DNA of 58,706 nt from an uncultured Christensenella sp. GTDB taxonomy: Bacteria; Bacillota; Clostridia; Christensenellales; DTU072. The notes beneath the pieces are model-generated. The model did not search any database. It had not been told where the DNA came from and was given only the letters and a program-made list of their open reading frames with translations. The translations under genes and the position numbers were made by a program. Location: the NCBI GenBank assembly GCA_905210905.1, contig CAJLYQ010000002.1, forward strand, positions 1 to 58,706. Reading direction: 5' to 3'. This document shows positions 13,121 through 58,706 of this stretch, one piece after another. Position 1 is the first letter of the stretch, and each line of letters starts with the position of its first letter.

Positions 13121-13410
13121 TTTTTCTGTTCTCCTTCTCTTTTTTATATGAAAAAACGGCGAATCCGCTTTGGGACGAATTCACCGTGTTGCCACCCAAT
13201 TTCATAGTCTAATCGCTTAAACTACCTTAATAACAGTACTACCATACTGTCTTCCTTTAACGCAGGAACTTACGTCGGAAACTACTACAATTTTCGCTCC
13301 CGCCCTCAATAGTCCATTCAACAAATTTCCGCTGTTCCGTCACACCACCCCGAAACTCTCTGAAAACTTCGATATGTCTACTACTCTATCTCAACGGTTT
13401 GTTAAGTTAT
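13121..13410 (-). promoter_or_regulatory. T-box riboswitch leader, Trp specifier (TGG)
   Basis: Read on the minus strand. Stem I has CAGAGAG..GGTGGTGTGA. The specifier loop is GAA-TGG-A (TGG at 13316..13314). The T-box is AAATTGGGTGGCAACACGG (13200..13182). The terminator is CGGTGAAT..ATTCGCCG+TTTTTT (13186..13151). Confidence 0.85.
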
Positions 13411-26882: not shown

Positions 26883-29450
26883 TTATCTTTTTGCTTCTTT
26901 TTTTACTTCGTATCCGGCGTAAAGCGTCAGATTTACGTCGATATTGTCGTTTTCGCTGAACTCGTAAAGACAGTCTTTGTCAAGATACCAGCCTTTGAAC
27001 GTGTAGGTGTAAGTATAAGTAATCTTGCTGCCGCTGTATTCTTCGATCTGTTCTTTACTGTCACATTTAGCGTTCTGTCCTTCCGTTTTGTTAGCCGCCC
27101 ACCATTTAGCGTCGGTATCGGACGCTTTTTCGATTTCCGACAAGAATGTAGAACCGCTTCCGATAGTGATCGCTTTCTTTTCGCTGTATAACATATCCTG
27201 AGATACGAGCGACTTGTTTTGTCTGAGCGATTTAATGTCGCCGGTATATCCGGTCGTCCAGGTTCTCGATTTGTTTTCGTTGGTCAAGTAACCTTTGTTT
27301 GCGGTCTGGAAGGATACTTCCGCTTGTCCCGCAATATGATACAGAACCGCTTCGTAGTTGCTTACGAAATAAGAAATCGCGTGGTCGGTAGCGTAGTCTT
27401 TTCTTGCCGCCGTGCCGTCTTTGTTGTTGTTGTGACTGTAAGGACATTTCGTTACGTCCGCTTCGGAAACTTTCTGATCGCAGCAACTCCATTTTCTTGC
27501 GATAACGAGGTCTTCGAGTCGTTCGCATTTTTCCTGCCATTTCTGGTTGGTTGCAAAACTCATACTTTCGTAATCGTAGGTGATTGCCGTGTTAATTTCA
27601 TTGAGCATCGTGCTCCATTCTTGCGAACCTACTTTTTGCGCAAGGTTGTCTACGCCCGCCGCTTTCCATTGATCGTAGGTTTGACCGTACAAAACGGTAA
27701 TCTTGCCTTTCGCGTACGCTTTTTCTTCGGTCTTGCCGGTGTATTCTCCGGTATCGGTGTAGTAACTACCGAGTTCCATATCTTTGTTGACGTAAACGTA
27801 ACTCTTAACTCTGTCGGACATTTTTCTTACCATATTTGCGCTGTAAGCGTAAACGTTGTAATAAAGCGCGCCGCTGAGTTCGCTCTTGTCCATTTTTTCG
27901 AGAAGATATTTTACGAGATAAAGTTGTTGCATTTCAAATCCGAACTTACCTTCGTATTCTTCTTCGCTGCTTCCGCCGTTCTTTTGTTTGGAGTTTTCGT
28001 ACTTCGTGTTGGCTTCGTTGTACTCCTTCATTCTGGATTCGCTTCCGCCGTAGCACCACGTCCAGTCGCTGAGCGCGAGTTGTCCTTTAAGTCCGTCTAT
28101 CGTTCCGTTTACCTGAATGGCTTTTCTCATATCTCCGGTATAAGTGGAAGACGCAGACGTCATCTTCATATCGGAAATATTGCTCTTAATTTCGTACACG
28201 CTTGCGTCGAACGTTTCGATTTCTTCCTGGAATCCGAAGTGATAGATGTAGAAGTCACGATAGAACGTATCGCTGTATCTGTATGCTTTTTCGTAGTTAT
28301 TACGTTGCATAGAAACGTATTCCGCCCACTCCGCGTTGGTGAAAACGCTTTGCTTTTCATATTTAAGTTGTTTAGCGTAGTCGTCTTCGTTTTTCAGAGA
28401 TACGTTGTAGTATTTCTGGTTGTAGTCGTAATAATATCCGTAAAGGCTTACGCAGTTTTGAAGTCCTTCGCTTTTTTGGTATCTGTACGAGTTAAAGGAA
28501 AGTAAGTAAGAGAGCGTCTCATAATCTCCGAGTCCTTTCATCGGATCTTCGCTTCCGGTAGGTTTGTACATACAGTACGACGCAAAAGAGTTATACGAAA
28601 CTTTTCCCGAAGAAGTGGTGATCGCTTCGTTCGCTTTGCCGCCGGATTTTTCTTCGACGAGTTTGATAGCGTACTGGAGCATATGGGTTGCGGTTCTTGC
28701 CGCGGCGTCGCCGCTCAAACCGACTTGTTCGTAAACCTTTGCAAGGATACTTCTGTACTGCCACGCCGCATTGTCTTCCGCAAGGTGCTTTTGATCTTTA
28801 TTCTTGTTGTCGGAAGTAAAGTTGCTGCTGTCGTTGACGTAGTTTTTAAGTCTGTCGTACATATCCCAGTCGTCAAGGAAAGACCAACCGGCATTGAAAT
28901 AACCGTTCGTGCCTTTTTGCTCTCTCCAGGTAGACGAATGATCGGAGAAAATACCGTCCCAACGCGTATCGTTGTCTTTAAGATACTTATCGATGTCGGG
29001 GTTTTCTTCCGAACCGTACAGATATTCTACGACTTTGTTCATTTCGTCGTAGGTAAGCGCGGCGTCCGCCATCGCCTGCAACAATCCGTCCGGGGTAGAC
29101 AAAGTAAAGATTTTTACGAAAGACGAAGTGGATTTTCTTTCCTTAACGTCGTCTTTTTTGGTATCTATACGTTTTTTCAATTTGCTTACCTGTTGAGTTG
29201 CGTCCTGTCCGGCATACTTGCCTTCGGAAAAAGAAACCGCGCTTTTTGCGTACTGGGTCGCGCTCTTGCCGTAGTTGGTAAGGTTTGCGAGTTTCTTTAT
29301 GTCGCTCGGTTTCAGGTCTTCTTTGTTTCCGTTACCCGTGTTTCCGCCGTTGGGCTTAGGGTCAACTTTAGAGGTACAAGCAAACACCGTACAGACCATA
29401 ATAGCGAGAAGAAGAACGAACAATACTCTCTTCAAAACTTTCATAATCAA
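26883..29450 (-). CDS. large lipoprotein of unknown function with a C-terminal Listeria-Bacteroides-type repeat
   Basis: 855 aa. The lipobox-like signal is LLLAIMVCTVFAC. The C-terminus YTYTFKGWYLDKD..LTLYAGY resembles a Flg_new repeat. Confidence 0.7.
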   Translation of the reverse strand: MIMKVLKRVLFVLLLAIMVCTVFACTSKVDPKPNGGNTGNGNKEDLKPSDIKKLANLTNYGKSATQYAKSAVSFSEGKYAGQDATQQVSKLKKRIDTKKDDVKERKSTSSFVKIFTLSTPDGLLQAMADAALTYDEMNKVVEYLYGSEENPDIDKYLKDNDTRWDGIFSDHSSTWREQKGTNGYFNAGWSFLDDWDMYDRLKNYVNDSSNFTSDNKNKDQKHLAEDNAAWQYRSILAKVYEQVGLSGDAAARTATHMLQYAIKLVEEKSGGKANEAITTSSGKVSYNSFASYCMYKPTGSEDPMKGLGDYETLSYLLSFNSYRYQKSEGLQNCVSLYGYYYDYNQKYYNVSLKNEDDYAKQLKYEKQSVFTNAEWAEYVSMQRNNYEKAYRYSDTFYRDFYIYHFGFQEEIETFDASVYEIKSNISDMKMTSASSTYTGDMRKAIQVNGTIDGLKGQLALSDWTWCYGGSESRMKEYNEANTKYENSKQKNGGSSEEEYEGKFGFEMQQLYLVKYLLEKMDKSELSGALYYNVYAYSANMVRKMSDRVKSYVYVNKDMELGSYYTDTGEYTGKTEEKAYAKGKITVLYGQTYDQWKAAGVDNLAQKVGSQEWSTMLNEINTAITYDYESMSFATNQKWQEKCERLEDLVIARKWSCCDQKVSEADVTKCPYSHNNNKDGTAARKDYATDHAISYFVSNYEAVLYHIAGQAEVSFQTANKGYLTNENKSRTWTTGYTGDIKSLRQNKSLVSQDMLYSEKKAITIGSGSTFLSEIEKASDTDAKWWAANKTEGQNAKCDSKEQIEEYSGSKITYTYTYTFKGWYLDKDCLYEFSENDNIDVNLTLYAGYEVKKEAKR

Positions 29451-40625: not shown

Positions 40626-42647
40626 TTATTTGATAGGCGTTCCTTCGGGAACGATATCGTCTACAAAAACGAGTTGGCAACCGCAAGCGTTGTTCGTTGC
40701 GGCAAGCAACATACCGTTGCTCGTTACGCCCGTAATTCTTGACGGTTTAAGGTTGGCGATAACGATAATTTTACGACCGACGAGTTGTTCGGGTTTGTAA
40801 TCGTTTTTAATGGAAGAAACTATCACTCTTTGATCGATACCGTCAAACAAGGTAAGTTTGTAGCAACTGTGCGATTTTCTTATTTCTTGGCATTTAAGAA
40901 TTTTACATACGCGCATATCGATTTTCGAGAAGAAGTCTATATCTATTTCTTCTTTAACGGGTGCGACGGGGTCCGGATCTCCGTATACTTTGGTTTCTTC
41001 GACAGGTTCGATTATCTCCTCTTCTTTTTTCATTTCGTCTTCCGTCATAGGCGTAGAGAAGTCGAGAAGTTTAAGGTATTTGTCCGCTTCGATTGCATAT
41101 AAGAACAAATAAAGTCTCGGTCCTTTTTCTTTATCGATAAGCAGTTTATAAACATTTTGGAAGAACTTGCCCTGTAAGGGTTTTAACGCCTTGTCTTCTT
41201 TGGACAAACCGTGTTCTCTCGCGGGAATAGCGTAAAGTTCGGTCTGAAGTTCGTCAAGCGTGTATCCGCCCTTGCTTAAATAGGAGTGAAGGTCGCTTAT
41301 CTCTTTCTTTTCGGTCTCGTCAAGGGTTTCGTAAACTTCCCAGTTACGTTTTGCGCAAAGGGTATTTACGTTTTCGGGCGAGCATTTTTCCAGCCAGAAT
41401 TTCGCTCTTTCCAGTCTGTCGCCGAATTCCGCATATTTATAGGGAGTTCCTATCTTTTCAAAAACCACTTCGAGCATCGGTACGTTAAAATCTACTACCG
41501 AGCCGAGTTGTACGATAAGTCCCATAGGCACGCAATGGACTTCTCTTCCTTCGATTTGGCAAAGTTCCATTATTTCTTTGGTCGCCTCGTTCGCTTTGCC
41601 CGTTCTTACGTCGGTAAGCATTTTATCGAATTCGAAATACTGACGAAGAATTCCGTCGTCGAGACAGAAGTTAAACGCCTTTAAGGGTTCGTTCTTCGAG
41701 TAAAGCCAAAGCAGAACTTCGGGTTCGTAAAGTTTAAGCAACGTTCCCGGCGTAAGGTTAAGTCCGCTCGAACCCGACATCTTACCGGTGGAAACGTTGT
41801 TATCGCTTATTCCGATAAACTCGTATCCTTGGAAAAGCGGCGGTTCGTATCCGAAAATTTTACGGGATATGTCTTTCGCCGTATCGTAACTGCCGTTCGC
41901 GCTTGCGTGATCCTTTCCGCCCGGCTCGAAGTCAACCCCTTCGTAAAGCCAACGCATAGGCCAGTCGATTTTCCAGGCAAGTTTGCAGTTGTGATTTTTC
42001 GTGAAATCGAAAGTTCCGTGATGACCGCATTTACATTCGTATTCGGCAACCGTGCAATCGTCCGACAAAGACGTAATCTTGGTCGTATCTCTTCCGCATT
42101 CCGGACAATAAATGCTGACCGGATAATACGCGTCGCGTTCGCCTTCCGTCGCGTCCTGCGTGCGGTGACTGTCCAGAATATCGAAAATCTCCTTGCGCTT
42201 TTGCAACGCAAGCAAAACGTAATCGGTGTATTTACCGTTTCTGTACATCTCCGCCTGATGACGATAGTCCATATCGATTCCGAACTTAACGATGGATTCT
42301 TCGAATTCTTTCTCAAAATATTCCGCATAGGTTTTTGCGTCGGAATCGGTGAAAGGATTTATTACGTCGACGTACGGACAGCCGATGTACTTTTCCATAT
42401 CTGAATTAACTTTGGCTACGTTTACGGGCACTTTTCTCATTCTGTCAAATTCGTCCCACGAGAAAAGCAAACGCGCTTTTTTACCGAGTTTTCTAAGCGC
42501 TTTAACTACGAAATAACTCGTCGCGATATCGCGAAAATTACCTATATGAATGGAGCCCGAAGGACTTATACCGGCAGCGCAGACGTACTCTTCTTTATCG
42601 GGTTTTCTCTCGATAATCTGCCTAGCCAATTTTTCCGACCAATGCAT
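40626..42647 (-). CDS. lysK: class I lysyl-tRNA synthetase fused to a C-terminal tRNA-binding (Trbp111/EMAPII-like) domain
   Basis: 673 aa. MHWSEKLA..GISPSGSIHIGNFRD and KMSGSSG match class I LysRS. The last ~110 aa (KIDMRVCKILKCQEI..GRKIIVIANLKPSRITGVTSNGMLLAA) match the OB-fold tRNA_bind domain. Confidence 0.85.
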   Translation of the reverse strand: MHWSEKLARQIIERKPDKEEYVCAAGISPSGSIHIGNFRDIATSYFVVKALRKLGKKARLLFSWDEFDRMRKVPVNVAKVNSDMEKYIGCPYVDVINPFTDSDAKTYAEYFEKEFEESIVKFGIDMDYRHQAEMYRNGKYTDYVLLALQKRKEIFDILDSHRTQDATEGERDAYYPVSIYCPECGRDTTKITSLSDDCTVAEYECKCGHHGTFDFTKNHNCKLAWKIDWPMRWLYEGVDFEPGGKDHASANGSYDTAKDISRKIFGYEPPLFQGYEFIGISDNNVSTGKMSGSSGLNLTPGTLLKLYEPEVLLWLYSKNEPLKAFNFCLDDGILRQYFEFDKMLTDVRTGKANEATKEIMELCQIEGREVHCVPMGLIVQLGSVVDFNVPMLEVVFEKIGTPYKYAEFGDRLERAKFWLEKCSPENVNTLCAKRNWEVYETLDETEKKEISDLHSYLSKGGYTLDELQTELYAIPAREHGLSKEDKALKPLQGKFFQNVYKLLIDKEKGPRLYLFLYAIEADKYLKLLDFSTPMTEDEMKKEEEIIEPVEETKVYGDPDPVAPVKEEIDIDFFSKIDMRVCKILKCQEIRKSHSCYKLTLFDGIDQRVIVSSIKNDYKPEQLVGRKIIVIANLKPSRITGVTSNGMLLAATNNACGCQLVFVDDIVPEGTPIK

Positions 42648-42763: not shown

Positions 42764-43213
42764 TTAAATATTTTTCGTTAAAGTAACAAATCCGTCGGGA
42801 ACAAGCCCGTCTCTTGCGTATAACGACTTCGCGTCCTGATTAGTATTAAGTACTTCAAGCGTGATGGATACCGCTTTCCCCTTAAATCTCTCTTCCAACC
42901 ATTTCAAAAACCGTCCGCCGTAGCCGTGATGTCTGCTCGTCGGACAAATGTACAATTCGTCCAGTACGAGTACCGAACCGCCTTCTTCGTTGCACCAGTA
43001 CGACGAAGTAAGCGCATACCCAATCGCCTCGCTCGTAACACCGTCAAACAGCATAAATCCCCATAAGTTTTCGTGCCGCTCAAGCACTCTCTCAAAGGTA
43101 ACCAGACACGTGCTTTCACAATAATTTTTTATCGTAGAACGTGAAGAATAAAACTCTTTGCATAGTTGTAAAAATTCGTCTTTATCTTGCTTTTCAAATT
43201 CTCTGATCGTCAT
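42764..43213 (-). CDS. GNAT-family N-acetyltransferase
   Basis: 149 aa with the acetyl-CoA loop RHHGYGGRFLKWL. Confidence 0.8.
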   Translation of the reverse strand: MTIREFEKQDKDEFLQLCKEFYSSRSTIKNYCESTCLVTFERVLERHENLWGFMLFDGVTSEAIGYALTSSYWCNEEGGSVLVLDELYICPTSRHHGYGGRFLKWLEERFKGKAVSITLEVLNTNQDAKSLYARDGLVPDGFVTLTKNI

Positions 43214-43269
43214 AAGTAAACCAATCGAAAACCCTACCGAATATCCGCCGTTTCCGATTTCGTGCGGTC

Positions 43270-43298
43270 AGTATATCATAAGCGACTTGAGTTGTCAA
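43270..43298 (-). promoter_or_regulatory. promoter of the GNAT gene
   Basis: TTGACA (43298..43293), a 17-nt spacer, then TATACT (43275..43270). Confidence 0.6.
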
Positions 43299-43524
43299 CG
43301 AACGGAACATAATTCTCGGTCGAAAATAGTTCCGACTGCAGCGTATAGTTTACATTAACAAAACAGCGCAACTCGCTTCGCTCGTCAGGTTTGCGCGCTA
43401 CGCACTGCAAACTTGCGAACCAACGATCATTTTTTTACGTTATTTTCTTTTTGGGTGTCGTTGATTCGCGGTAATCGGGTGCGCCAAACAAAAAAAGACG
43501 AACTTAAGGGTGTTACCATTAGGG

Positions 43525-43559
43525 AAAACAGGCGCAGGCGAATAGCTTGCGCCTGTTTT
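43525..43559 (-). terminator. 12-bp hairpin just downstream of the recombinase genes
   Basis: aaaacaggcgca / tgcgcctgtttt arms with an 11-nt loop. Confidence 0.5.
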
Positions 43560-43568
43560 CTTGCCTTT

Positions 43569-45071
43569 TTACGGTAAATCTATCTCTCCGACGTGCGTTA
43601 GACATATCGTTACCGTTCTTTTATAGCCGTCTTCCGTTTTTACCTTTTCCGAAACGATGACTTTATCGATCAGCAGTCTGACGATTTCGGGCGTTAGTTT
43701 CTTGATTCTGCCCGTTTTGACCACAAGAGAAACGAAATTATTGATGTTATCATTTATCTCGTCGTATCGGTCGATTTCGCTTTGACTGTTTTCAACCGTT
43801 TCTTTCAGTTGCCGTTGCTCCTGCTCATATGCCTCGGACATCAAAGCAAACCGTTCTTCCGTTATCTTGCCCATAACCTTATCTTCATAAAGGCTTTGAA
43901 TGATCTTGTTCAGAGCCTTTATTCTGTTTTCGGCTTCGGATACTTGTCTTGCCTTCTTCGCAACTTCCTTTCTTGACAGCAATCGGGAGTGTTGGATGGC
44001 AATATCGACAAAGTCTCCTTCATGATCGATGACAAAGTCGGAAACTCTTTTTAAGTAACTCAGAACGATTTCTTCAATGGCTTCTACGGTTATCTGATGC
44101 GAAGTGCAGGTCGATTTCTTCTGCTTGCGGTAGGACGAGCAGTTAAAATATTCCTTTTGCTTCATAGTAGATGAGCGGCAGAGATACATTTTCTTTCCGC
44201 AGTCCGCACAGTAAACCATTCCCGAAAACACGTTCATCTCGCCCATCGGCGTCGGTCTTCGTCTGCCTTCGCGTATTTTCTGTACGGTATCATACGTCTG
44301 TTTGTCGATGATCGCTTCCTGCGTATTCTCGAAGGTAACCCATTTAGACGGATCGTTCCATACCTTCTTCTTACACTTATAGGACTTCTTTGTCGTCCGG
44401 AAGTTTACGGTACAGCCCGTATAGTGCGGATTGCTCAGGATTCGTTTTATCGTATCCGAGCACCATAATTCAGGCATGGGTGATGTTGCCGGGTGCTTAA
44501 TGCCGAGTCTGTCGTAATGGCAGATTGGCGTTTCAACTTTTCTTTCGTTGAGAATCCGTGCAATATGCGTCGGACCGAACCCCTGCATACAGAGAGCGAA
44601 AATCTCTTTTACCGTTTTTGCCGCTTCTTCATCGATGATCCATTGTTCCTTGTCGTCGGGGCTTTTCAGATAACCGAAAGGCGGAACAGTACACAGGTGT
44701 TTTCCCGAATTGCCTTTGGAACGGAATACCGCGCGGATCTTCTTGCTTGTGTCCTTTGCGTACCACTCGTTGATGATGTTACGGAATGGGGTAAAATCGT
44801 TGTCTACCTGACTTTCACTGTCCACGCCGTCATTGACCGCGATAAATCTTACGCCCGCTTCGGGAAAGGTTATCTCGGTATACACGCCGACTTTCAGATA
44901 ATCCCTGCCGAGCCTCGACATATCCTTGACAATAATTGTACCGACCTCGCCGGCGTCGACTTTACGCATTAAACGCTGAAAGTCGGGGCGATTGAAGTTC
45001 GTACCCGAATATCCGTCGTCCACAAACGTTTCAAGATTGCGGAAACCGTGTTCTTTTGCATATTTGCTCAA
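43569..45071 (-). CDS. large serine recombinase, N-terminally short or degenerate (TTG start, no catalytic-Ser segment in the callable ORF)
   Basis: 500 aa with [15 protein letters not shown], the Zn ribbon CADCGKKMYLCRS, a coiled coil and a DUF4368-like C-terminus. See the finding on its N-terminus. Confidence 0.8.
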   Translation of the reverse strand: MSKYAKEHGFRNLETFVDDGYSGTNFNRPDFQRLMRKVDAGEVGTIIVKDMSRLGRDYLKVGVYTEITFPEAGVRFIAVNDGVDSESQVDNDFTPFRNIINEWYAKDTSKKIRAVFRSKGNSGKHLCTVPPFGYLKSPDDKEQWIIDEEAAKTVKEIFALCMQGFGPTHIARILNERKVETPICHYDRLGIKHPATSPMPELWCSDTIKRILSNPHYTGCTVNFRTTKKSYKCKKKVWNDPSKWVTFENTQEAIIDKQTYDTVQKIREGRRRPTPMGEMNVFSGMVYCADCGKKMYLCRSSTMKQKEYFNCSSYRKQKKSTCTSHQITVEAIEEIVLSYLKRVSDFVIDHEGDFVDIAIQHSRLLSRKEVAKKARQVSEAENRIKALNKIIQSLYEDKVMGKITEERFALMSEAYEQEQRQLKETVENSQSEIDRYDEINDNINNFVSLVVKTGRIKKLTPEIVRLLIDKVIVSEKVKTEDGYKRTVTICLTHVGEIDLP

Positions 45072-45156
45072 TATTTCTTTTTGATGTACGATGCTGTTGC
45101 TGTCACCTTCCTGTTCGTCGTCGGATGAGTGTACGAGGGGGATATTGGCGTAATCC

Positions 45157-47030
<1,874 letters not shown>

Positions 47031-47684: not shown

Positions 47685-47790
47685 AAAGCGGATATATTAT
47701 CTTAGTTTTGTCGACTTCCGCGAAAACGTCGACTACCGTACATCAGTACGCCGACGCTCCGTTTTCTCGGAAAAATAATGCAATCTAACC
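47685..47790 (-). repeat. copy A of a ~105-bp repeat module with a long hairpin
   Basis: The core 47723-47765 matches 52848-52890 at 40/43 positions, with flanking similarity (AAAGCGGAT.. and a T/A-rich tail). Confidence 0.7.
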
Positions 47791-47884: not shown

Positions 47885-49285
47885 TTATTTGCTCCAATAA
47901 TATTGGGAGCGTCGTTGTTCTTCGGCTTGCGCCTTTTGCTCTTCTTCTTTCCTCTTTTCTTCGATCTCTTCCTCGATGTCTTGCAGTCTGTGCGAAAAGT
48001 CACGTTCCAAGTCGAGTATGCTCGTTGCAAAACTCATAAAGAGCGAATCGAACCTCTTGGCGACGTTCCGTTCCGAGATGGCAAGACTTCGTTTTAGCTT
48101 GTTGTCGTTGACCTCGTACTTCCGGCGCGGGCTACGTTCATAGTGTTCGGCTTTGATAAACTTTGCCGCGTGTAAGACAATGTTCCCCACTCTGCGGTCA
48201 TAGTCTTTCTCCAGTACGTCCACAAGGGTTATCGTATCGGGATCGATCTTGAAGTGATACTTTTCGTCCGTGGCTGTGCCTTCGCATATCTCTTTGAACC
48301 GTTGCCGTATCTCCCCGAACTTCTCACTCACCCGCTCGTCGGCTTTCAACGCTTCACGATCCCTCAAAAAGAGCATCGTAGCGACCTTGTCGATTTTTGC
48401 TCGATAGGGTTGCATTTCTTTTCTTCCGTACTCAAACGGTATCCCCTTGGGTAAATCTTTACAGAGCGATAATAGTTCCTTCTTAATATCGTCTTGGGTA
48501 TACATGGAACCGGCGAACGCCGTTATAGCTCTGAGCCGTCGTAACGCATCGTCCCTTGCATAATGCACTTCGTCCGTCTTGCCCGTAACGTATAAGGATA
48601 ACCGCACGCGCATATTGTCTATGACCTTCTGCTCTATCTTCCCTTTGTGGCGGTATTCCATTTCCTTTTTCCGATACTTGCATTTCGGCTCTTTCTCCCA
48701 AAAGGCGAAGTGAATGTGGTAGTGTTTTTCTCTGTCGAGGTGCAAGGCGCACAGTAAATCCACGTTCTTCGGCTCCAGTCCCATCTCTCTGAAAAACTGT
48801 CCGAAGTTACGTTTGACGAGGCGCATACATTGTTCGGGCGTTTCTATACGGAACGAGTTTTCTTTGTTCAGCGATACGAACCCGTGCCAAATGTTTTTCT
48901 TGCCGTCTTGGGCGCGTTTCTTCATCTCTTCCACCTGAATAGGCGAGAGGAAGCCGTCGCCGTTAAATACGCCGTGGTTCTTCTCGAAATACTCCTGTAC
49001 CGTTTCCGCTTCCTTCCCTTGTCGTTTTTTCCCCGCGTTTATGTATTCGTAGACGTTCTTCTCTCCGGACATATCGAAGAAGGCGCGCTCTTGTCTGTGC
49101 TTCTCGATCTCTTTTTCCGTCGCCCCTTTCTTTAAGGCGTAGGGTGTGTACCTGATGTTAAAAATAACCGGTTGATTACTGATAATAATTTCCTCCTTTT
49201 CATTTTCTCCGTTGTCAAAACGAGGCGGGTTTCCCGCTCGTACGTCCGCCGTCGGGCGGACAAGCAAAAAAGTGTTTTGCAACAA
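47885..49285 (-). CDS. putative conjugative relaxase/mobilization protein
   Basis: 466 aa. The His-triad-like LHLDREKHYHIHFAFWE fits the HxDx3HxH pattern. The start codon is uncertain: a TTG was called, and a strong AAGGAGG RBS lies further downstream before ATT/ATC codons. Confidence 0.6.
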   Translation of the reverse strand: MLQNTFLLVRPTADVRAGNPPRFDNGENEKEEIIISNQPVIFNIRYTPYALKKGATEKEIEKHRQERAFFDMSGEKNVYEYINAGKKRQGKEAETVQEYFEKNHGVFNGDGFLSPIQVEEMKKRAQDGKKNIWHGFVSLNKENSFRIETPEQCMRLVKRNFGQFFREMGLEPKNVDLLCALHLDREKHYHIHFAFWEKEPKCKYRKKEMEYRHKGKIEQKVIDNMRVRLSLYVTGKTDEVHYARDDALRRLRAITAFAGSMYTQDDIKKELLSLCKDLPKGIPFEYGRKEMQPYRAKIDKVATMLFLRDREALKADERVSEKFGEIRQRFKEICEGTATDEKYHFKIDPDTITLVDVLEKDYDRRVGNIVLHAAKFIKAEHYERSPRRKYEVNDNKLKRSLAISERNVAKRFDSLFMSFATSILDLERDFSHRLQDIEEEIEEKRKEEEQKAQAEEQRRSQYYWSK

Positions 49286-51399: not shown

Positions 51400-51406
51400 A
51401 AGAACA

Positions 51407-51442
51407 AGCCGGGAGTGAAGACAATTTGCTCTCGGCTTTTTT
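51407..51442 (+). terminator. rho-independent terminator
   Basis: agccgggag / ctctcggct stem plus TTTTTT. Confidence 0.65.
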
Positions 51443-51637
51443 CATATAATCACTAAGTTCAAATATATCCCTTAACCCAGCAAATAACATTGTTTTTTGA
51501 TTTTATCCGTTATTTCAAAAAGTTATTTCAATAGCCTAAATCGCTTGCAAAATTAGTCGGCAGGAAGTGACCGATCATTTTGCCGAGGTCAGCAAATTGA
51601 TAGATATCGCAAAAGGCAACCAAAGAATAGTGACGGA

Positions 51638-51823
51638 TTATAAACCCCACTCGTTACGTTTGTTTTTTCTCACCCGTTTCCCAAGCAATTCACGATTGGT
51701 CTTTTGCAAGAATTTATAAGCGTTTCCATGCTTTAAGTGTCCGTGGTAACTTACGGAAACGATTTTCAAATCCTCTCGTTTCAGTTTCCCGATATCGTAT
51801 AAATATCGCTTGTACTTTACCTT
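51638..51823 (-). other. in-frame continuation of the DGR RT beyond a TAA (C-terminal ~61 codons)
   Basis: The same frame as 51824..52744 continues KVKYKRYLYDIGKLKREDLKIVSVSYHGHLKHGNAYKFLQKTNRELLGKRVRKNKRNEWGL, with a stop at 51640..51638. Confidence 0.75.
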
Positions 51824-52744
51824 TTAAAGTATTCTCTTTTTCGTTTGTTTCAGCGGTTTCTGGACGATTTTTCCGTTCTCGCCGTAAAAGATATGCCATC
51901 CTAAAAAATTGATACCGTTTTTCACTGCGCAAATCTGGGTCTTTCTATTGGGATAAATTTTGTCGCGGACGATCATTTCTTTGATCTTTTCCAAATACTT
52001 GGCGCACTTTTCTTTCTCTTCTCCGCAAAGAAGTATCATATCGTCCATATACCGAAGATAATGCTTTACGCGCAATCTCTCTTTGATGAATCTGTCCACG
52101 TCGCTTAAATACAACAGCGCAAAACATTGGCTCGTCTGATTTCCCATCGGCAAGCCTTTATCCTCTTCTTTATTATAACTGTCGATTATATCGTACAGCA
52201 AACCAAGAACATCATCCCTTTTTACTATTCTTTTCAGTTTTTCTTTCAAAACCGTATGATCGATGCTCGCAAAATACTTTTTCACGTCGATCTGGATAAA
52301 ATATCCGTTTTTTCCGTAATTTTTATAATGTTCCGTCATAAAGCGGCGAAGTCTCTTGATTGCAAAATGCGAGCCTTTATTCTTTCTACAAGCGGCGTTA
52401 TCGTAAATAAGATGACGATCGAGGAGCGGCGTCAGAAAGTTGTCGCAAAAAGTGTGCTGTACGATCCGATCGCGATAATGTATCGCCTGTATCTCCCGTT
52501 CTTTCGAATCATAGATCATAAAAGTGTGATACCCGCCGACCCGGTATTTTCCGTATTTGAGGTCGTAATGAGTCGCCCAAAGATTCTCGGACAGATTCAT
52601 TTCGAACTCTATCACTTCCTTTTTGTGTCTTTTACTTAGTCGCGCCCTTCGGTGCGCTTTATACAAACCGGTAAAACCGATCATAGTATCCCATTCATTC
52701 ATAATGCCAATAAATAAAGTCGTCGGAAAGTGTCCAAAGCGCAT
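51824..52744 (-). CDS. DGR-type reverse transcriptase (ORF ends at an internal TAA)
   Basis: LPMGNQTSQCFALLYL fits the DGR [I/L/M]GxxxSQ signature, the catalytic motif is YMDD, and the N-terminus reads LYKAHRRARLSKRHKKEV. The start is uncertain (Met at 52744, 52702 or 52684). Confidence 0.88.
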   Translation of the reverse strand: MRFGHFPTTLFIGIMNEWDTMIGFTGLYKAHRRARLSKRHKKEVIEFEMNLSENLWATHYDLKYGKYRVGGYHTFMIYDSKEREIQAIHYRDRIVQHTFCDNFLTPLLDRHLIYDNAACRKNKGSHFAIKRLRRFMTEHYKNYGKNGYFIQIDVKKYFASIDHTVLKEKLKRIVKRDDVLGLLYDIIDSYNKEEDKGLPMGNQTSQCFALLYLSDVDRFIKERLRVKHYLRYMDDMILLCGEEKEKCAKYLEKIKEMIVRDKIYPNRKTQICAVKNGINFLGWHIFYGENGKIVQKPLKQTKKRIL

Positions 52745-52810
52745 TTATTTGCGCCGAAGAAAACGGAATAATCAAAAAATAGAAAAACTATATGAAATCG
52801 TTAAAAAAAT

Positions 52811-52915
52811 AAAGCGGATTATAATCATAATTTTCTTCGGCTTTTATAAAAACGTCGACTAACGTACGTCAGTACGCCTACGCTCCGTTTTTATAAAAAA
52901 TCAACACACTTATGC
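52811..52915 (-). repeat. copy B of the ~105-bp repeat module with a long hairpin (in the TR-RT spacer)
   Basis: See copy A. The hairpin is AAAACG..CGTAC-GTCA-GTACG..CGTTTT. Confidence 0.7.
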
Positions 52916-53094
52916 CACTTTGAGTCGTCGGGAACTTTCGTTCGCAAAGAGGTAAAGAAATAATTTCCGTAACTCTTACCGACGACTGAAATTTGTGCCG
53001 TCCTGTGGACGACCCCGGGAAAAGATTCCTTTGCTTCAGAGTACGCAACGAAAGTACGTACCTTCGCCCTCCGACCTTTTCTCTTTCGATAGGA

Positions 53095-53220
53095 GCAAAT
53101 CGGGCACGACCCCATTATTAGTGTTGTTTACGTTGTTGTTGTTATTAGCGTTGCCATTGTTATTGACTTCGCGCGCGTTATTACTATTATTATAGTTCGG
53201 CGAGCGGAGCCACCACCAAC
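53095..53220 (-). repeat. DGR template repeat (TR)
   Basis: 126 bp that align without gaps to 53850-53975. The coding-strand sequence is rich in AAY codons. It lies between avd and the RT. Confidence 0.92.
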
Positions 53221-53297
53221 AGGGGTGGCAAACAAACCGGCATAAACGTGCGTAACCTTTTCCCATATCTACCGCTTCTTTTGCGGATGATACCATA

Positions 53298-53660
53298 TTA
53301 TGCAGAGCCTGTGGCTTGAATCCATTTATTTAAGTATAATAGCGCTTCCGCCACTTGCTTGCTGATCTGTTCGTATTGCTTAGGCAAAATGCACTCCTGT
53401 TCATAGGCAATACCGGAAAAATAATCCAACATGGAAAGAAGCGTTTTCGCCTTCTTTTGATGAATCAGCCTTTCTTCCTTTTCCGTACTGCTGTTTGCCA
53501 AATACTCCTCTTCCAGCGCGTCCAATATATAATTTTGCAATCGTACAACCAACGTAAAACGGAATTTTTTTGGTGATTTTTCCGTCACCGTTATTATGTA
53601 TTTCGCCAAATCTTTCGTCTTGGTGATCACGAACAAATTATTCTTTTTTTGCATTTCCAA
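53298..53660 (-). CDS. avd: DGR accessory variability determinant (Avd-like four-helix-bundle protein)
   Basis: 120 aa with a helical pattern like the 23S-rRNA-IVS/four-helix-bundle family (KSPKKFRFTLVVRLQN..). It is positioned between the VR and the TR. Confidence 0.75.
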   Translation of the reverse strand: MEMQKKNNLFVITKTKDLAKYIITVTEKSPKKFRFTLVVRLQNYILDALEEEYLANSSTEKEERLIHQKKAKTLLSMLDYFSGIAYEQECILPKQYEQISKQVAEALLYLNKWIQATGSA

Positions 53661-53835
53661 AAAAAATTTTCGTCGCGCTTTACGCGCGATCCCTCGCTTC
53701 AGGCAATCGCGGGAAGAGGCGTAAAACGCTTATCTCTTCCCTTGATTGCGGAGTCATGCCTTGCGGCATGGGAGCCCTTTGCGTATCGCCACTGTGAGGC
53801 AATTTGCTTTTTATTGTTTCGGGTTATCCACAGCC

Positions 53836-56800
53836 TCACAGCTTTATACGCAAAGCGGGCACGACCCCATAACTAGGGCTGCTCACGCCGTTGCTGCTAT
53901 CAGCGTAGCCATTGTACTTGACGTCGCGCGCGAGACTACTATAATAACAGCCCGGCGAGCGGAGCCACCACCAACCGTTGCCATAATCGTCTGTAGACGT
54001 ATTCATATATGCGCCGGTAGCTCTGCTGTAATCGCTTGTTTGCATACATCTTGCCGTATCATAATTGCTGTAATCGGCATTAAATCCATACGCGCTGTTC
54101 GTTACTTCCTGCTCGCTGAGCAAGAACACCCTGTCCTGTGTATTCGAGCAAGCGTAACTATTGTTTCCGCTGGTAAATGCCGTTGCGTTGTTGTTCGGGT
54201 TCGTGCTTCTCGCGCTGTTATCTACGGTTGTCAGTTGAATAATTTCCTTTTGCAAATCGTTAAACGCCGTGTTGTAGAACGTGTCGTTCAACCAAGCGCG
54301 GATTTCACTGTTTGCATAGTTATTGCTATTTGAAGCATATCTATGATTTGCGATTATGCTTTCGCATAGGATAAACAACTCTCCGTTCGTTTCCGAAAGA
54401 ATACGCCATTTAATGGGTTCCACCTTAAAGTAGTATACCGTCCCGCTCGTCACGCTTGCTCCGGTAGAGAACATATAACCACTTTGAAACGGTCTTGCCG
54501 AAACTATGGCGTAGTAATATCCGTCGGAACCGAGATAATAACCTTTTTCGTTCGTGGTGTTCGTAATGGTCACGTTATTGGCTTTTATGGTTTGCGGATA
54601 TTCTCCGAAGTAAATATAATTTCCTTCACGCGAATTAGTATTAGTAGTAGACGTAGTTTCGCTCCACTTGGCGTACAGTACGACGTTATCCCCCGTGTAC
54701 GTTATTTCCGTCACTTCGTTATCAAACGTACTTTCCGTATACCAACCGAGGAAGGTATACTCAGTTATTTCTTTCGTTATACGATAATTGCCGTTTCCGA
54801 GATATTCGCTACTGATCGTCGTTTCCGAAGTCACTTTCGCAGGATCGTTCAACGCGATCCCGCCTTCCGCACTCACGATGGTAAAGGTCGAAGGATTGTT
54901 CCCGTTGGTGCCGCCGTTCAGATTGTAGGTCACGGTATAGGTGATGATCGTCGTCTTCGCCGTCAATTGATAGATGCCGGAATCTTTATCCCATGCAAAG
55001 AGGCTATCGCCGTTACTGTCTGTAATAAGAGTATTGTTGTATTGCCATCCGACGAAAGTATAGCCTTCGAACATATTACAAAATGAATAATTATCTCCTT
55101 TATATACCCTTTGCGTGCCTATATATAAACCGTTAAAATACAGTTCAAGTATAGATTGATCGGTATCAAGAACGACCAACGTATATTCTTGGCAGAAATC
55201 ATTGCCGACTCTGTCGGTTGTGGTAATTCTGTAAGTAATGGTTTCGTTTACTTCAAGAGAACCCGAAAGCGTTTCAACGTTAAACAACAATTCTTTATCG
55301 AAACTGTCAAGAACTTTAAAAAGCGCGTAAGGACTATCACCGTTCTGGATATAGTCATAATCTCTCGAATAGACGAGCGTCGGCATATCGTAAATCTTAA
55401 TGCCCGTAATCAATTCGCTCTGTGTGGTATTCCCGAGAGCGTCGGTCGCAACGATATAAAGATTGATCGTGTTTCCGCCCGCAAGGGTATATCCACTTGC
55501 CGCTACGATAGACGTTTCGCAAGTCTCACCGAAACCGTTTACGGCTTGGGCATTGAATTCTTCGCCGACAGACAATTTTCTGATGTTGTTTGCCGTAGTT
55601 GTGTACGTCAACGTGATATCATCACTGGAATACACTTTAACGTTTTGCGAAATCACTTCGTAGTAATTGCCGAGATGATCCGTCGTAGAAAGTTTGAAGG
55701 TTACGACGTTGCCGCCCGCCGCAATCGTACCGCTATTCAGAACAACGCTTACGCTCAAATTATCGTTGAAACTGTCTTTCGCCGTAGCGTTCAACAATGC
55801 ACTGTTTACGGTATCGGTTACTTTCATCGAAGTTTTTTCGGTATCAAACGTGATCGTCGGCGTTCCGTAAATCTTGATGCCCGATATTTCTTTCGTGTTT
55901 ACGTTGCCGAGATGGTCGGTTGCAGTCACAAGATAAGTAAGCGTTGCACCGGAAATCTGCGAGCCTGAAATCAATTCCAAAGTCACGTTGGATAAAGTCT
56001 TTGCAAAACTGTCTTTTGCAACTATACCGAGAGTTTCAAGCGTTATTTCATCTTCAACCTTAAAGTTGGTCGTCGAAGCACCGCTGATAGAGGGCAATCC
56101 ATAAACCTTTACAGAATACGTAACGTAATTCGTATTGCCTTTGCTGTCGGTCGTAGAACTCTTGATAGTGATTGTGTTGCCGCCGGAGAACGTTCCGCTG
56201 TATTGAATGGTGGTAACGTCAAGCTGGGCGCCGAAACTATCTACTGCGGAAACGCCGAATAATGCATTGCCGATAGTATCCGACGCTTTTATATCCACAA
56301 CGTCGATATTCCGTGTAATAACGGGTGTACCGTAAACTTTCACGTTCGGTATTTCAACTTCGGTCTCATTACCCGTTTTATCGGTCGTGGAAATAACGAC
56401 GGTAACGATATCACCGCCATTATATGTACCTTCTTTTACCGAAACGTTGACAGCCACGGCATCACCGAGAGTATCAATCGCGCTTGCGCCGAAAAGCGAA
56501 GCGTTGATCGTATCGGACATATTGAAATAGTCTTTTTCGGTGTTGTATGTAAGCGTAGGCGCGCCGTAAACGTTGATATTCGATATCGTTTCAACAGCAT
56601 AGATATCGTAAAGTCCCATAGCGACCAATCTTACGGTTATCTTGCCGCCAACGACTTTTGAACCGCCTGTAATTTGTGCCGTTACTTCAACAGGATTTCC
56701 GTCGGTATCCACTGCGGTCGCACTGAACGTTTCGGCGACTATTGCATCGTTAATACTGATTTCCGTCCTCTTATTGCAAGTTAAAGAAACATCATAATCA

Positions 56801-58578
56801 ATCCATTTTGCATACAAGGTAATGTCTGCTGCCTGCATTGTAGAGAAGACGTATTCAGTCGTCAAAGAACTGTCAAACCAACCCACGAAGGATTTTTCTT
56901 CAAGCGTAGGTTTAACAGGCGCGGTTACCGCCGTGCCGTAATCTTGCGTGATGGGAGCAACGTTGCTTCCGCCGTTGGAAACGAATGTAATCGTGTATTG
57001 GTTGACACTCCATTTTGCCGTATAAACAATACTTTCTTCGGGCATTGTGAAAGTGTAGGACAGATTGTTCGTCAACAATTCGTCCCCGTCAAACCAACCA
57101 ATCCAAGTATAGCCGACGTTCGTTGTTGCAGTTATGGTCTTGCTTGTTCCGGCAGTCACGTTTGTATTGTCATAAGCGGAAACCGTGCCGGCGTTTGCAA
57201 TATTCTTTTCGGTAGTCAAGGTATAAGCAATCCATTTAGCGTAAAGCGTTGTATTTGCCGCTTTATCCCAAACTTTTACGCTGTCACCGTTTTTATCGGT
57301 ATATTGCGTTCCCGTTCCGCCGAGTCCATCGTACCAACCGGCAAAGGTATAACCTTCTTTTTCGCAATCGGTTGAAAGAGTAAAGGCAGAATCGTAAGTA
57401 ACGTTTTGGGTAATCGCCGCAACGCCGGAACCGGTCGCTTTACCACCGGCAGCAGGTGTAGCCGCACCGGACATACAAAGTGTAAGAGTTATACTACTAC
57501 CGCTATAAGCGCATGGTGCAATATAATACAATATTCCTGCCGTTACGGAATAGGTAATGCTGAAATTATTACCGTTTCCGCTGTCATTGTCTGATTTTAA
57601 CCAAGACTTGCTACTGTTATATAAATATCCGTAGCTGTCACTACTTCCGGTAGAATACAATGTAATGTTTCCACTGGTTAAAGGAACAAACGCATAGTAT
57701 TTATATGAAGTCGTCCTTGATTTAGAAGGTGCGGAAATACCTGAAATACTTCCGTTCAAACTCAATACACCTGCTCCGCTATACGATATCCACTTCGCAT
57801 AAACGGTCGTATCTCTCGTTACGGTAGCCGTAAAGTCAAACAAAGTAGAACAACTGCTTGTTGTATACCAGCCGCCAAAGACGTAACCGCTTCTCGTTGG
57901 AATGCTCGGATACGTCAAGCCAGTTGTGGTCGTAACTGTTTGCGAAGGAATACTTCCGCTTGCGCCGTTCAAGTTAAAGGAAACCGTATAAACGGGATCA
58001 AGATCAACATAAGTTTCTGTTTCGCTCAAAGTAACAGTATACGTATTTGCAGTCCATTTTGCGTAGAGAATAACGACGTCGTTATTAACGGAAGACAAGT
58101 TGCTCACGCTTTGTCCGTTCGTATAAGACGTTCCTGTTCCGTCCGAATTAGTCGTCCAACCGGCAAACGTATATCCCATTCTTGTATATGCGTTGGTCGT
58201 TAAGGCTTTCGACGCGTCATAAGTATACGTTTCATTGCTCATCGAACCGGACGTAGCATCGTTTCCGTCAAACCTTACCTGATAAGTTATTGCCTGCCAA
58301 TTTGCATAAAGCGTTGTTGCAGAAGTCTTATCCCAATTAGCCGCACTCGTCAGATCTGCGTTGTAATACTTTTTACCACCGCTTGAAGAGTCAAAGTAAC
58401 CCAAGAAAGTATAGCCCGTTTTCGTTGGGATTGTAGTAATAACAGGCATAGCGGAATCATATGTCGCAGAAACATTGCTTTGCGTTCCCGTTCCACTATT
58501 TGCATTGAAAGATATGTCATAATTATTTGCAGTCCATTTCGCATAGAGAATAACAACTGCGTTATTGACGGAAGACAA
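53836..58578 (-). CDS. DGR target: giant repeat-rich surface-type protein (Listeria-Bacteroides repeats, Ig-like tandem modules, C-terminal DUF6273/CLec-type domain with VR)
   Basis: 1580 aa called from a TTG. The frame is open up to the TGA at 58656..58654. Repeats of GYTFAGW..LYAKW are present. The C-terminus reads YFGEYPQ..EPIKWRIL..IRAWLN..WWWLRSP..GVVPAL. Confidence 0.85.
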   Translation of the reverse strand: MSSVNNAVVILYAKWTANNYDISFNANSGTGTQSNVSATYDSAMPVITTIPTKTGYTFLGYFDSSSGGKKYYNADLTSAANWDKTSATTLYANWQAITYQVRFDGNDATSGSMSNETYTYDASKALTTNAYTRMGYTFAGWTTNSDGTGTSYTNGQSVSNLSSVNNDVVILYAKWTANTYTVTLSETETYVDLDPVYTVSFNLNGASGSIPSQTVTTTTGLTYPSIPTRSGYVFGGWYTTSSCSTLFDFTATVTRDTTVYAKWISYSGAGVLSLNGSISGISAPSKSRTTSYKYYAFVPLTSGNITLYSTGSSDSYGYLYNSSKSWLKSDNDSGNGNNFSITYSVTAGILYYIAPCAYSGSSITLTLCMSGAATPAAGGKATGSGVAAITQNVTYDSAFTLSTDCEKEGYTFAGWYDGLGGTGTQYTDKNGDSVKVWDKAANTTLYAKWIAYTLTTEKNIANAGTVSAYDNTNVTAGTSKTITATTNVGYTWIGWFDGDELLTNNLSYTFTMPEESIVYTAKWSVNQYTITFVSNGGSNVAPITQDYGTAVTAPVKPTLEEKSFVGWFDSSLTTEYVFSTMQAADITLYAKWIDYDVSLTCNKRTEISINDAIVAETFSATAVDTDGNPVEVTAQITGGSKVVGGKITVRLVAMGLYDIYAVETISNINVYGAPTLTYNTEKDYFNMSDTINASLFGASAIDTLGDAVAVNVSVKEGTYNGGDIVTVVISTTDKTGNETEVEIPNVKVYGTPVITRNIDVVDIKASDTIGNALFGVSAVDSFGAQLDVTTIQYSGTFSGGNTITIKSSTTDSKGNTNYVTYSVKVYGLPSISGASTTNFKVEDEITLETLGIVAKDSFAKTLSNVTLELISGSQISGATLTYLVTATDHLGNVNTKEISGIKIYGTPTITFDTEKTSMKVTDTVNSALLNATAKDSFNDNLSVSVVLNSGTIAAGGNVVTFKLSTTDHLGNYYEVISQNVKVYSSDDITLTYTTTANNIRKLSVGEEFNAQAVNGFGETCETSIVAASGYTLAGGNTINLYIVATDALGNTTQSELITGIKIYDMPTLVYSRDYDYIQNGDSPYALFKVLDSFDKELLFNVETLSGSLEVNETITYRITTTDRVGNDFCQEYTLVVLDTDQSILELYFNGLYIGTQRVYKGDNYSFCNMFEGYTFVGWQYNNTLITDSNGDSLFAWDKDSGIYQLTAKTTIITYTVTYNLNGGTNGNNPSTFTIVSAEGGIALNDPAKVTSETTISSEYLGNGNYRITKEITEYTFLGWYTESTFDNEVTEITYTGDNVVLYAKWSETTSTTNTNSREGNYIYFGEYPQTIKANNVTITNTTNEKGYYLGSDGYYYAIVSARPFQSGYMFSTGASVTSGTVYYFKVEPIKWRILSETNGELFILCESIIANHRYASNSNNYANSEIRAWLNDTFYNTAFNDLQKEIIQLTTVDNSARSTNPNNNATAFTSGNNSYACSNTQDRVFLLSEQEVTNSAYGFNADYSNYDTARCMQTSDYSRATGAYMNTSTDDYGNGWWWLRSPGCYYSSLARDVKYNGYADSSNGVSSPSYGVVPALRIKL
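53850..53975 (-). repeat. DGR variable repeat (VR) within the target gene's 3' end
   Basis: It differs from the TR at 24 positions, 23 of which correspond to A in the TR coding strand. Confidence 0.92.
55170..56800 (-). repeat. about seven tandem ~78-aa Ig-like coding modules inside the target gene
   Basis: The periodic protein pattern is ..(V/I)K(V/I)YG(T/A/L)P..(S/T)D(T)(I/V)N..L..(A/V)(K/V)DS(F)..; coordinates are approximate. Confidence 0.6.
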
Positions 58579-58706
58579 ATTACTTACATTCTGACCATTC
58601 GTATAAGATGTACCAGTTCCGTCCGCATTAGTCGTCCATGAAACGAAGCTGTATCAATTTGTCAATGCGTACAAATTCTTGAAATGTTACTTGAAATACT
58701 ACGAGT

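Follow-up and report, generated by a model that had tools for sequence, protein, structure and literature searches.

Does a protein-diversifying cassette in a Clostridia genome still rewrite its target, or has the variable part of that target come to rest? This question is raised by the DNA presented above, a stretch of 58,706 nucleotides (hereafter the window, the whole 58.7 kb that was analysed) that covers positions 1 to 58,706 of contig CAJLYQ010000002.1 (assembly GCA_905210905.1) from an uncultured Christensenella sp. Towards its right end, the minus strand carries a diversity-generating retroelement (DGR), with a template repeat (TR), a variable repeat (VR) at the end of a target gene, a gene for the accessory variability determinant (avd) and a gene for a reverse transcriptase (RT). 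Besides DGRs, no prokaryotic system that hypermutates proteins in a targeted way is known, and no environment is known to have a higher DGR density than the human gut. The answer favoured here, which we regard as probable, is that the locus is a canonical Avd-type DGR carried on a strain-specific island in the chromosome of a Christensenellales-like bacterium of the human gut, that the VR has been diversified in its lineage, and that this copy has most likely been inactivated recently, leaving its VR frozen.

The repeat pair and its adenine bias

The protein-coding parts and the repeats of the cassette are as follows.

53836-58578, minus strand: target open reading frame (ORF), 1580 codons from TTG, with Flg_new repeats and a C-terminal DUF6273
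53842-54387, minus strand: DUF6273 domain, residues 1398-1579, the ligand-binding scaffold that holds the VR at its C-terminal end
53850-53975, minus strand: VR, supported by the repeat search, the recount and alleles in relatives
53856-53868, minus strand: GC-rich 3' end of the VR that contains no adenine, GGGGTCGTGCCCG, with an identical TR copy at 53101-53113
53298-53654, minus strand: avd, 118 aa from ATG
53095-53220, minus strand: TR, supported by the repeat search and the recount, inside a spurious ORF (53036-53296)
51824-52702, minus strand: RT ORF, 292 codons from an ATG that matches the starts of homologues (mechanical ORF start at 52744)
51638-51823, minus strand: C-terminal remnant of the RT, untranslated and in frame, 61 codons plus the original TAA stop (51638-51640)

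A repeat search returned a single direct repeat pair in the window, namely two copies of 126 nt (53095-53220 and 53850-53975) at an offset of 755 nt and with 81% identity, which align without gaps. Upon column-by-column recounting, the two copies differ at 24 positions, and 23 of these carry a plus-strand T in the TR, equivalent to A on the coding minus strand; read on the plus strand, the changes from TR to VR are T to C in 13 cases, T to A in 6 and T to G in 4. The sole mismatch that does not involve an adenine is A at 53162 versus C at 53917. The TR contains 43 coding-strand adenines among its 126 positions, and 23 of the 43 are substituted in the VR. Coordinates, offset, tally, exception and fraction of substituted adenines had all been proposed in a preliminary description made from the sequence alone, and each was reproduced by the repeat search and the base-by-base tally that it had called for. 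The order target/VR, avd, TR and RT on one strand (minus) is likewise supported.

In the frame of the target ORF, the mismatches fall on codon positions 1, 2 and 3 in a ratio of 10/11/3, and the TR includes 18 AAY codons, none of its codons being turned into a stop by substitution of an A, in agreement with the design described beforehand. The theoretical repertoire reachable from the TR amounts to ~1.9e24 proteins. The VR corresponds to residues ~1535-1576 of the 1580-codon ORF and is followed by four codons (RIKL) and the stop, and hence lies at the 3' end of the target gene where it had been placed. The two ends of the repeats, already noted as invariant, are so and hold no adenine, which means that their invariance is what adenine-specific mutagenesis predicts. 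In particular, the GC-rich 13-mer GGGGTCGTGCCCG is unchanged in all relatives with an avd at least 90% identical, and it can reasonably be regarded as similar to the initiation of mutagenic homing (IMH) element, with a putative function modelled on the IMH of phage BPP-1; the sole difference between TR and VR inside the shared 3' end is A in the TR versus C in the VR (53100/53855). No other copy of the anchor TGGTGGTGGCTCCGCTCGCC, of a VR, of an RT or of a DUF6273 domain occurs anywhere in the 58.7-kb window, so the single VR that had been reported stands alone there. The 86-codon ORF that covers the TR (53036-53296, minus strand) is given a DUF6273 label by gene callers; it is the template copy and not a gene.

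Related loci allow the fate of the two repeats to be followed between samples. An exact look-up of the Avd led to four other metagenome contigs (L001-L004) and its 90% cluster to three more (L086-L088). The Avd is 100% identical in L001, L003 and L004 and at least 90% identical in L086. Three further VR alleles were thus obtained, from L001, from L003 (with L004 as a matching fragment) and from L086, making four with that of the window.

L002 (same as the window): TR identical; VR as in the window
L003: TR identical; VR with 23 substitutions at A and 2 at C relative to the window TR, and one extra AAY-derived codon
L004: TR identical; VR fragment of 35 nt, identical to L003 over the overlap
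L001: TR with one change; VR with 22 substitutions at A and 9 others relative to the window TR, and 9 extra bases
L086: TR deleted; VR with 25 substitutions at A and 5 others relative to the window TR

The VR cores are 56-61% identical between alleles, and the 400-nt flanks are 91-99% identical. Variable VRs next to an essentially unchanged TR and conserved flanks indicate repeated mutagenic homing in the lineage. DGR activity is therefore established for the lineage, between samples, and not for the copy in the window. The VRs of L001 (5676-5805) and L003 (543-671) exceed the TR in length by in-frame insertions, of 3 nt in L003 and of 6 and 3 nt in L001; in L003 the addition lengthens the (AAC)n run to six AAY-derived codons, and these longer sister VRs suggest either slippage of the RT on the AAC repeat or an older, longer TR.

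A wider sample was provided by 80 genome loci with RT homologues from GTDB species representatives, in which TR/VR pairs were sought with a simple self-BLAST filter. These loci belong mostly to Clostridia metagenome-assembled genomes (MAGs), from Christensenellaceae, Lachnospiraceae and Oscillospiraceae, and some to Treponema. A pair biased towards A was found in 51 of the 80, the TR lying nearly always 200-400 nt upstream of the RT. The repeat pair might instead result from a simple segmental duplication, in which the 3' end of the gene was copied and then diverged at random beside an unrelated RT. The mere existence of a repeat would fit this view, which has to contend with 23 of 24 differences on one base of one copy (binomial probability of at least 23 of 24 mismatches on A, given 43 adenines in 126 positions, P=2.9e-10), with the same asymmetry in the 51 homologous loci and with a TR that is conserved while the VRs differ between samples, and we give it practically no credence. 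The identification of a DGR made in the preliminary description is upheld and is strengthened by the relatives and the population data.

The target into which the VR is built matches the Pfam families Flg_new (E=3.8e-68) and DUF6273 (E=2.9e-23), contains at least six Listeria-Bacteroides (Flg_new) repeats and is presumably a very large surface protein. It had been presented as an ORF of 1580 aa; the 1580 codons down to the stop are confirmed, whereas the start is questionable, as the TTG lies inside an Flg_new repeat unit, the repeat homology runs upstream to 58638, and three in-frame stops stand just before the TTG. No signal peptide was detected on the ORF as it stands, and both available assemblies end within ~130 nt of the TTG. 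A TTG inside a repeat, with stops upstream of it at a contig end, implies that the N-terminus of the target is missing or was not resolved. Over 58579-58706, another frame encodes the end of a different ORF.

The last 204 residues of the target were modelled by AlphaFold2 with a predicted local distance difference test (pLDDT) score of 95.5. With this model, Foldseek found one significant match in the PDB, to the N-terminal domain, which contains DUF6273, of the IgA peptidase of Thomasclavelia ramosa (9qa6; PMC12402451), and among viral models (BFVD) it matched DUF6273 phage proteins; by sequence, the C-terminus of the target found no useful matches in the PDB. DUF6273 has been described as a C-type-lectin-like DGR target (PMC10743442, PMC11792537). 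The C-type-lectin label is thus taken from the literature, as Foldseek did not reproduce it.

The mutagenic machinery

The RT ORF matches the RVT_1 profile (E=3e-18), and its best solved relative is the RT of Bordetella phage BPP-1, bRT (8ub7, E=1.1e-35), the next PDB match reaching 1.5e-10 and the retron and group II RTs of the PDB trailing at ~1e-10. Its motifs are YMDD and PMGNQTSQ; compared with the DGR RT signature [I/V/L]GxxxSQ (PMC7826257), the SQ is kept and the first position is Met instead of I/V/L. The motif is conserved as PMGNQ[TS]SQ across the RT family, and the equivalent of bRT Arg74 (R74) is conserved. Taken with the neighbouring TR/VR pair, the bRT match and the motif indicate, at the sequence level, that the RT belongs to the DGR clade. 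Assignment to the retron, group II intron or defence (Abi/DRT) types of RT might be argued on account of NCBIfam scores for group II RT/maturase (92.8 bits), Drt3a (74) and retron (45), which all fall far under their cutoffs (300, 200 and 235, respectively). In E-value, bRT outdoes the retron and group II structures of the PDB by 25 orders of magnitude, the motif is MGxxxSQ and not QGxxxSP, an Rfam scan of the window for RNAs and the domain matches gave no maturase or X domain, msr/msd or intron RNA, and the homologues are flanked by TR/VR pairs and avd. An RT of such another type is accordingly a very remote prospect.

The product of avd is recognized by the PHROG profile "Avd protein of DGR" (E=4e-18), by NCBIfam DivGenRetAVD (E=5.5e-15) and by Pfam bAvd (E=1.4e-9), and phmmer found no match to it among the solved Avd structures of the PDB. 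The noncoding elements around the genes are the following.

52919-53099, minus strand: spacer (Sp) RNA, structured, 3' of the TR, ~180 nt
53099-53092 with 53037-53030, minus strand: Sp helix 1, from covariation
53068-53060 with 53055-53047, minus strand: Sp helix 2, from covariation
52987-52979 with 52931-52923, minus strand: Sp helix 3, from covariation
52718-52922, minus strand: insertion of 205 nt, made up of 196 nt and a single copy of CCGACGACT, a direct repeat of 9 nt
53777-53855, minus strand: nested hairpin after the VR, which begins directly after the VR homology and includes the stop codon of the target
53846-53855 with 53777-53786, minus strand: outer stem of the hairpin, CUUUGCGUAU/AUACGCAAAG, from RNA folding
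53833-53841 with 53792-53800, minus strand: inner stem of the hairpin, CUGUGAGGC/GCCUCACAG, from RNA folding

A structured RNA located 3' of the TR recruits RT-Avd and primes cDNA synthesis in BPP-1 (10.1101/2023.10.23.563531). In an alignment of the spacer from 10 loci, 87.6% of the cells are paired, compensatory changes occur in 16 of 25 pairs, and the covariation score was reached by none of 500 column shuffles, controls slid along the alignment being 41-57% paired. Folded alone, the spacer of the window is not significantly stable (z = -1.3), and support for its structure thus derives from covariation and not from folding energy. The helices may act as Avd-binding, cis-primed reverse transcription (cPRT) Stop or bRT-binding elements.

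The region after the VR folds with z = -5.2, a value equalled by none of 200 shuffles. In most relatives with the order VR, avd, TR and RT, folds read by eye place a hairpin right after the conserved GCTTTG at the end of the VR, the stems having sequences that are unrelated from locus to locus. In BPP-1, an inverted repeat lies just 3' of the VR, and the structure of its stem counts rather than the stem sequence (PMC3240598); a hairpin in the same place with unrelated stems agrees with this rule. In the fold of 53740-53870 (minus strand), the 3' end of the VR, GGGGUCGUGCC, pairs with GGCAUGACUCC ~100 nt downstream, around the hairpins after the VR, and the TR copy of this end has no pairing partner like GGCAUGACUCC. 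Consensus scans for promoters and terminators over 51400-54100 gave nothing usefully above shuffled expectation.

For the machinery by which, as observed here in the lineage, an unchanging TR passes adenine-specific changes on to the VR, homology with BPP-1 suggests a sequence of steps. The minus strand would be transcribed into an RNA that comprises avd, TR and spacer, and the structured spacer would be bound by the RT and an Avd pentamer. Synthesis of cDNA, primed in cis, would then copy the TR with random misincorporation opposite adenines only, and the cDNA would replace the VR under the guidance of the GC-rich 3' end that lacks adenine and of the hairpin after the VR. In this way, up to 24 codons (18 of them AAY) could be rewritten on the C-terminal DUF6273 of the Flg_new-repeat protein.

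Lesions of this copy and decay in sister loci

The DGR had been called complete, a term that the evidence does not support: the RT is cut by an in-frame TAA, an insertion of 205 nt precedes it, and the N-terminus of the target is, as described above, missing or was not resolved. The TAA at 51824-51826 ends the RT ORF, and the 61 codons that continue in frame behind it encode the C-terminus conserved in full-length homologues. The matching codon is CAA (Gln) in three relatives (L087, L088 and L005), which points to a C>T nonsense mutation (CAA>TAA) private to the lineage of the window. A search with the read-through RT recovers homologues by the hundred, 330-350 aa long and aligned to 94-97% of the query; in the closest full-length one (P0001, 85% identical), RILQKVKYKRYLYDIG stands where the window has RIL*KVKYKRYLYDIG, and the best match among GTDB species representatives is 88% identical and comes from a Clostridia MAG. 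By position in the alignment, the lost stretch would correspond to roughly the last 45 residues of bRT, that is the thumb. In the BPP-1 ribonucleoprotein, the thumb touches the template:primer duplex and is encircled by the spacer RNA (10.1101/2023.10.23.563531), and its loss should abolish cDNA synthesis. The window copy thus lacks the intact full-length RT gene that an autonomous element needs and, because of the nonsense codon, is most likely non-autonomous. For annotation, this is a warning that a cassette with every part present may still depend on help from elsewhere. An alternative genetic code was considered for the in-frame stops and rejected, as the 1580-codon target and all housekeeping ORFs are open under table 11 and the relatives have CAA.

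On one side of the 205-nt insertion stands helix 3, and on the other come the T-run, the ribosome-binding site and the start codon (ATG) of the RT; in relatives the T-run and RT start come directly after helix 3. The insertion is bounded by the direct repeats CCGACGACT (52931-52923 and 52726-52718) and is absent from L001 and L003, whose loci are 92-95% identical, and from six more distant relatives. Its core (52811-52891) has a second copy 5 kb away (47685-47765, 82% identical), which suggests a small repeat or a miniature mobile element, and no clear terminal inverted repeats were seen on it. The truncated RT, the insertion and the missing 5' end of the target together make recent inactivation of the cassette the most likely reading: CAA>TAA removes the thumb of the RT, and the 205-nt element stands between the spacer RNA and the start of the RT.

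The same truncated RT product of 306 aa is recorded in the NCBI, Logan and ENA assemblies, and over 11.4 kb a single base separates the ENA contig (run ERR321646) from the window. The occurrence of the same stop in three assemblies means that it is not a slip of a single assembler. A competing view is that the cassette is complete and fully active, the TAA being an artefact of the consensus or of sequencing, a minority allele, read through, or compensated by the RT of another DGR. This view is helped by the intact state of Avd, TR, spacer helices, VR frame and hairpin. It must, in turn, accommodate an identical stop in three different assemblies, a thumb remnant with no start codon for separate expression, the absence of a second RT from the window and the unambiguous deletions of TR and RT in sister loci. 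We know of no read-through context that consists of UAA followed by A, and count this against it as well. On balance, we consider continued activity unlikely, while giving it more weight than any other alternative raised here.

Several observations nonetheless weigh against the favoured reading of a recently inactivated DGR. The three assemblies with the TAA probably stem from the one run ERR321646, as the competing view also has it, so that they do not prove fixation of the stop in the population. Beyond the stop, the frame of the RT remnant stays open and free of further lesions, likewise a point in favour of an active cassette, which implies that the mutation is recent and that low-level read-through is possible. 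An RT outside the 58.7-kb window could act in trans; unless it does so from elsewhere in the genome, the reading of a frozen VR most likely holds. The truncation of the target at its 5' end, at a contig end and in repetitive DNA, may reflect a limit of the assembly rather than biology. Furthermore, the Avd scores lie under curated cutoffs (bAvd 38.9 bits against a gathering threshold of 40, DivGenRetAVD 55.6 against a cutoff of 80), and the Foldseek search of the PDB with the DUF6273 model retrieved neither Mtd nor TvpA, its C-lectin matches not being significant.

The sister loci show that loss of the mutator is not confined to the window. A deletion common to L087 and L088, from two pig-gut samples, has taken away TR and spacer along with the first two-thirds (5') of the RT; in L086, avd is missing its 3' end and neither TR nor RT is left; and in L001 the RT homology ends after ~105 codons. 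The regions concerned are the following.

L087:1657-2587: sister-locus deletion region
L088:1594-2524: sister-locus deletion region
L086:6630-8427: sister-locus deletion region
L001:6755-7070: sister-locus RT, truncated after ~105 codons

With the nonsense codon of the window included, the ~7 sampled loci contain at least four separate knock-outs of the mutator, and independent deletions of TR and RT in sister loci indicate that decay is common in this family of islands. Among the closer relatives for which a whole RT is available, only L005/L006 are intact (345 aa), with a TR/VR pair in which 24 of 25 mismatches are at A. The C-terminus of the target that bears the VR is kept in three of the four knock-out cases, and no match to the VR was found in the two pig-gut loci. 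Recurrent loss of the mutator might be due to selection that "locks in" a favourable VR allele and not to neutral decay, a notion that we hold to be rather doubtful. If true, the loci would form a natural series for how and when DGR hypermutation gets turned off.

Known systems and genomic setting

The closest described system is BPP-1, with the order mtd-VR, avd, TR, Sp and brt, for which PMC3240598, PMC6182149, PMC7826257, 10.1101/2023.10.23.563531 and PDB 8ub7 served as sources. Both loci have the same gene order on one strand and an Avd-type accessory protein, an RT of which bRT is the closest relative of solved structure, with the R74 equivalent and an SQ-type motif 4, an AAY-rich TR, a VR at the extreme 3' end of the target gene, a GC-rich 3' end of the repeats that contains no A, an inverted repeat right after the VR and a structured spacer RNA between TR and RT. 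They differ in that the DGR of the window is chromosomal and island-borne, whereas that of BPP-1 is phage-borne; the target is a Flg_new-repeat protein of >1500 aa with DUF6273 instead of Mtd, a tail-fibre tip of 381 aa; and the RT motif starts with Met, not I/V/L. In addition, the hairpin of the window is long, nested and AU-rich with a large loop, in contrast to the 8-bp GC stem with a GRNA tetraloop in BPP-1, the spacer has ~180 nt plus the 205-nt insertion compared with 140 nt, the 3' ends of TR and VR are the same but for one A/C and so offer no clear distinction between the IMH of the VR and the IMH* of the TR, a difference that fixes in which direction information is transferred, and the RT is truncated by a stop codon.

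The scaffold of Treponema denticola TvpA and Legionella LdtA is a C-lectin fold of the FGE type, whereas that of the window target is DUF6273, and neither sequence nor Foldseek searches of the PDB linked the target to the TvpA/LdtA folds. The window nevertheless resembles these two systems and the pilus adhesins of Bacteroides (10.1101/2024.11.15.621889) as a bacterial DGR whose ligand-binding domain is presumably surface-exposed, and some RT homologues are annotated from Treponema MAGs. The prophage DGRs of Faecalibacterium (PMC11792537) also have a DUF6273 target with the VR at its C-terminal end and reside in gut Bacillota; unlike these and other gut phage DGRs, the window has no phage structural genes, and its target is a giant multi-repeat protein of cell-surface type, not a tail protein. 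Tentaclins (PMC10743442) contain DUF6273 too, but their VR-bearing domain is N-terminal and that of the window C-terminal. No publication that pairs a DGR with the Listeria-Bacteroides repeat turned up in a literature search.

Catalogued DGRs number in the tens of thousands (PMC8144416), and little here is new in kind, as both Avd-type DGRs and DUF6273 targets are already described. The value of the locus lies in its clean adenine specificity, in VR alleles that differ between samples against an unchanged TR, in RNA and DNA structures supported by covariation within a Clostridia clade that lacks experimental study, and in sister loci that display several routes to inactivation of a DGR.

The target also varies outside the VR. 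Its homology to the proteins of L001 (>2141 aa) and L086 (2625 aa) begins at the identical window position 55065, with breakpoint counterparts at L001:4569 and L086:6630. A C-terminal module of ~410 aa is common to the window, L001 and L086, the N-terminal architectures differ, and L005 has VWA domains instead, a pattern that resembles a shuffling of modules in the variable protein.

The first 43 kb of the window are ordinary chromosome, with priA, ligA, pcrA, pgk, iPGM, hydrogenases, a class I lysS and a T-box leader, and the PGK is 88% identical to a protein of a Christensenellales MAG. The chromosomal edge of the DGR island is marked by one feature.

43569-46842, minus strand: two tandem large serine recombinase genes (DUF4368 type)

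Between GNAT/lysS and the DGR lie these two recombinases, a gene for a DUF6291 protein and another whose Sigma70_r4 match is below threshold. In most conspecific contigs, tsaD is directly beside the GNAT and lysK genes, representing an empty site, from which it follows that the DGR rides a strain-specific integrative island. Other conspecific contigs have a different island there, with type I restriction-modification, OLD-family and helicase genes and one such recombinase. An integrative or conjugative island is indicated by the neighbours of the DGR and by genes of L001 such as PcfJ, and no phage structural genes were seen in the window. The junction between tsaD and GNAT-lysS (window 43213-46842, compared with L089-L096) is an integration hot spot.

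Two ORFs on the minus strand have no Pfam match, 26883-29450 (855 aa) and 47885-49285 (466 aa); the latter, which belongs to the DGR island, lacks a PHROG match as well and has a conserved counterpart in L087. At 40626-42647 (minus strand), a class I lysyl-tRNA synthetase with a C-terminal tRNA-binding domain is encoded in this Clostridia-type chromosome. Finally, the T-box leader (13168-13403, minus strand; Rfam RF00230, 119.5 bits) lies upstream of a gene for a pyridoxal phosphate (PLP)-dependent enzyme (11729-13120).

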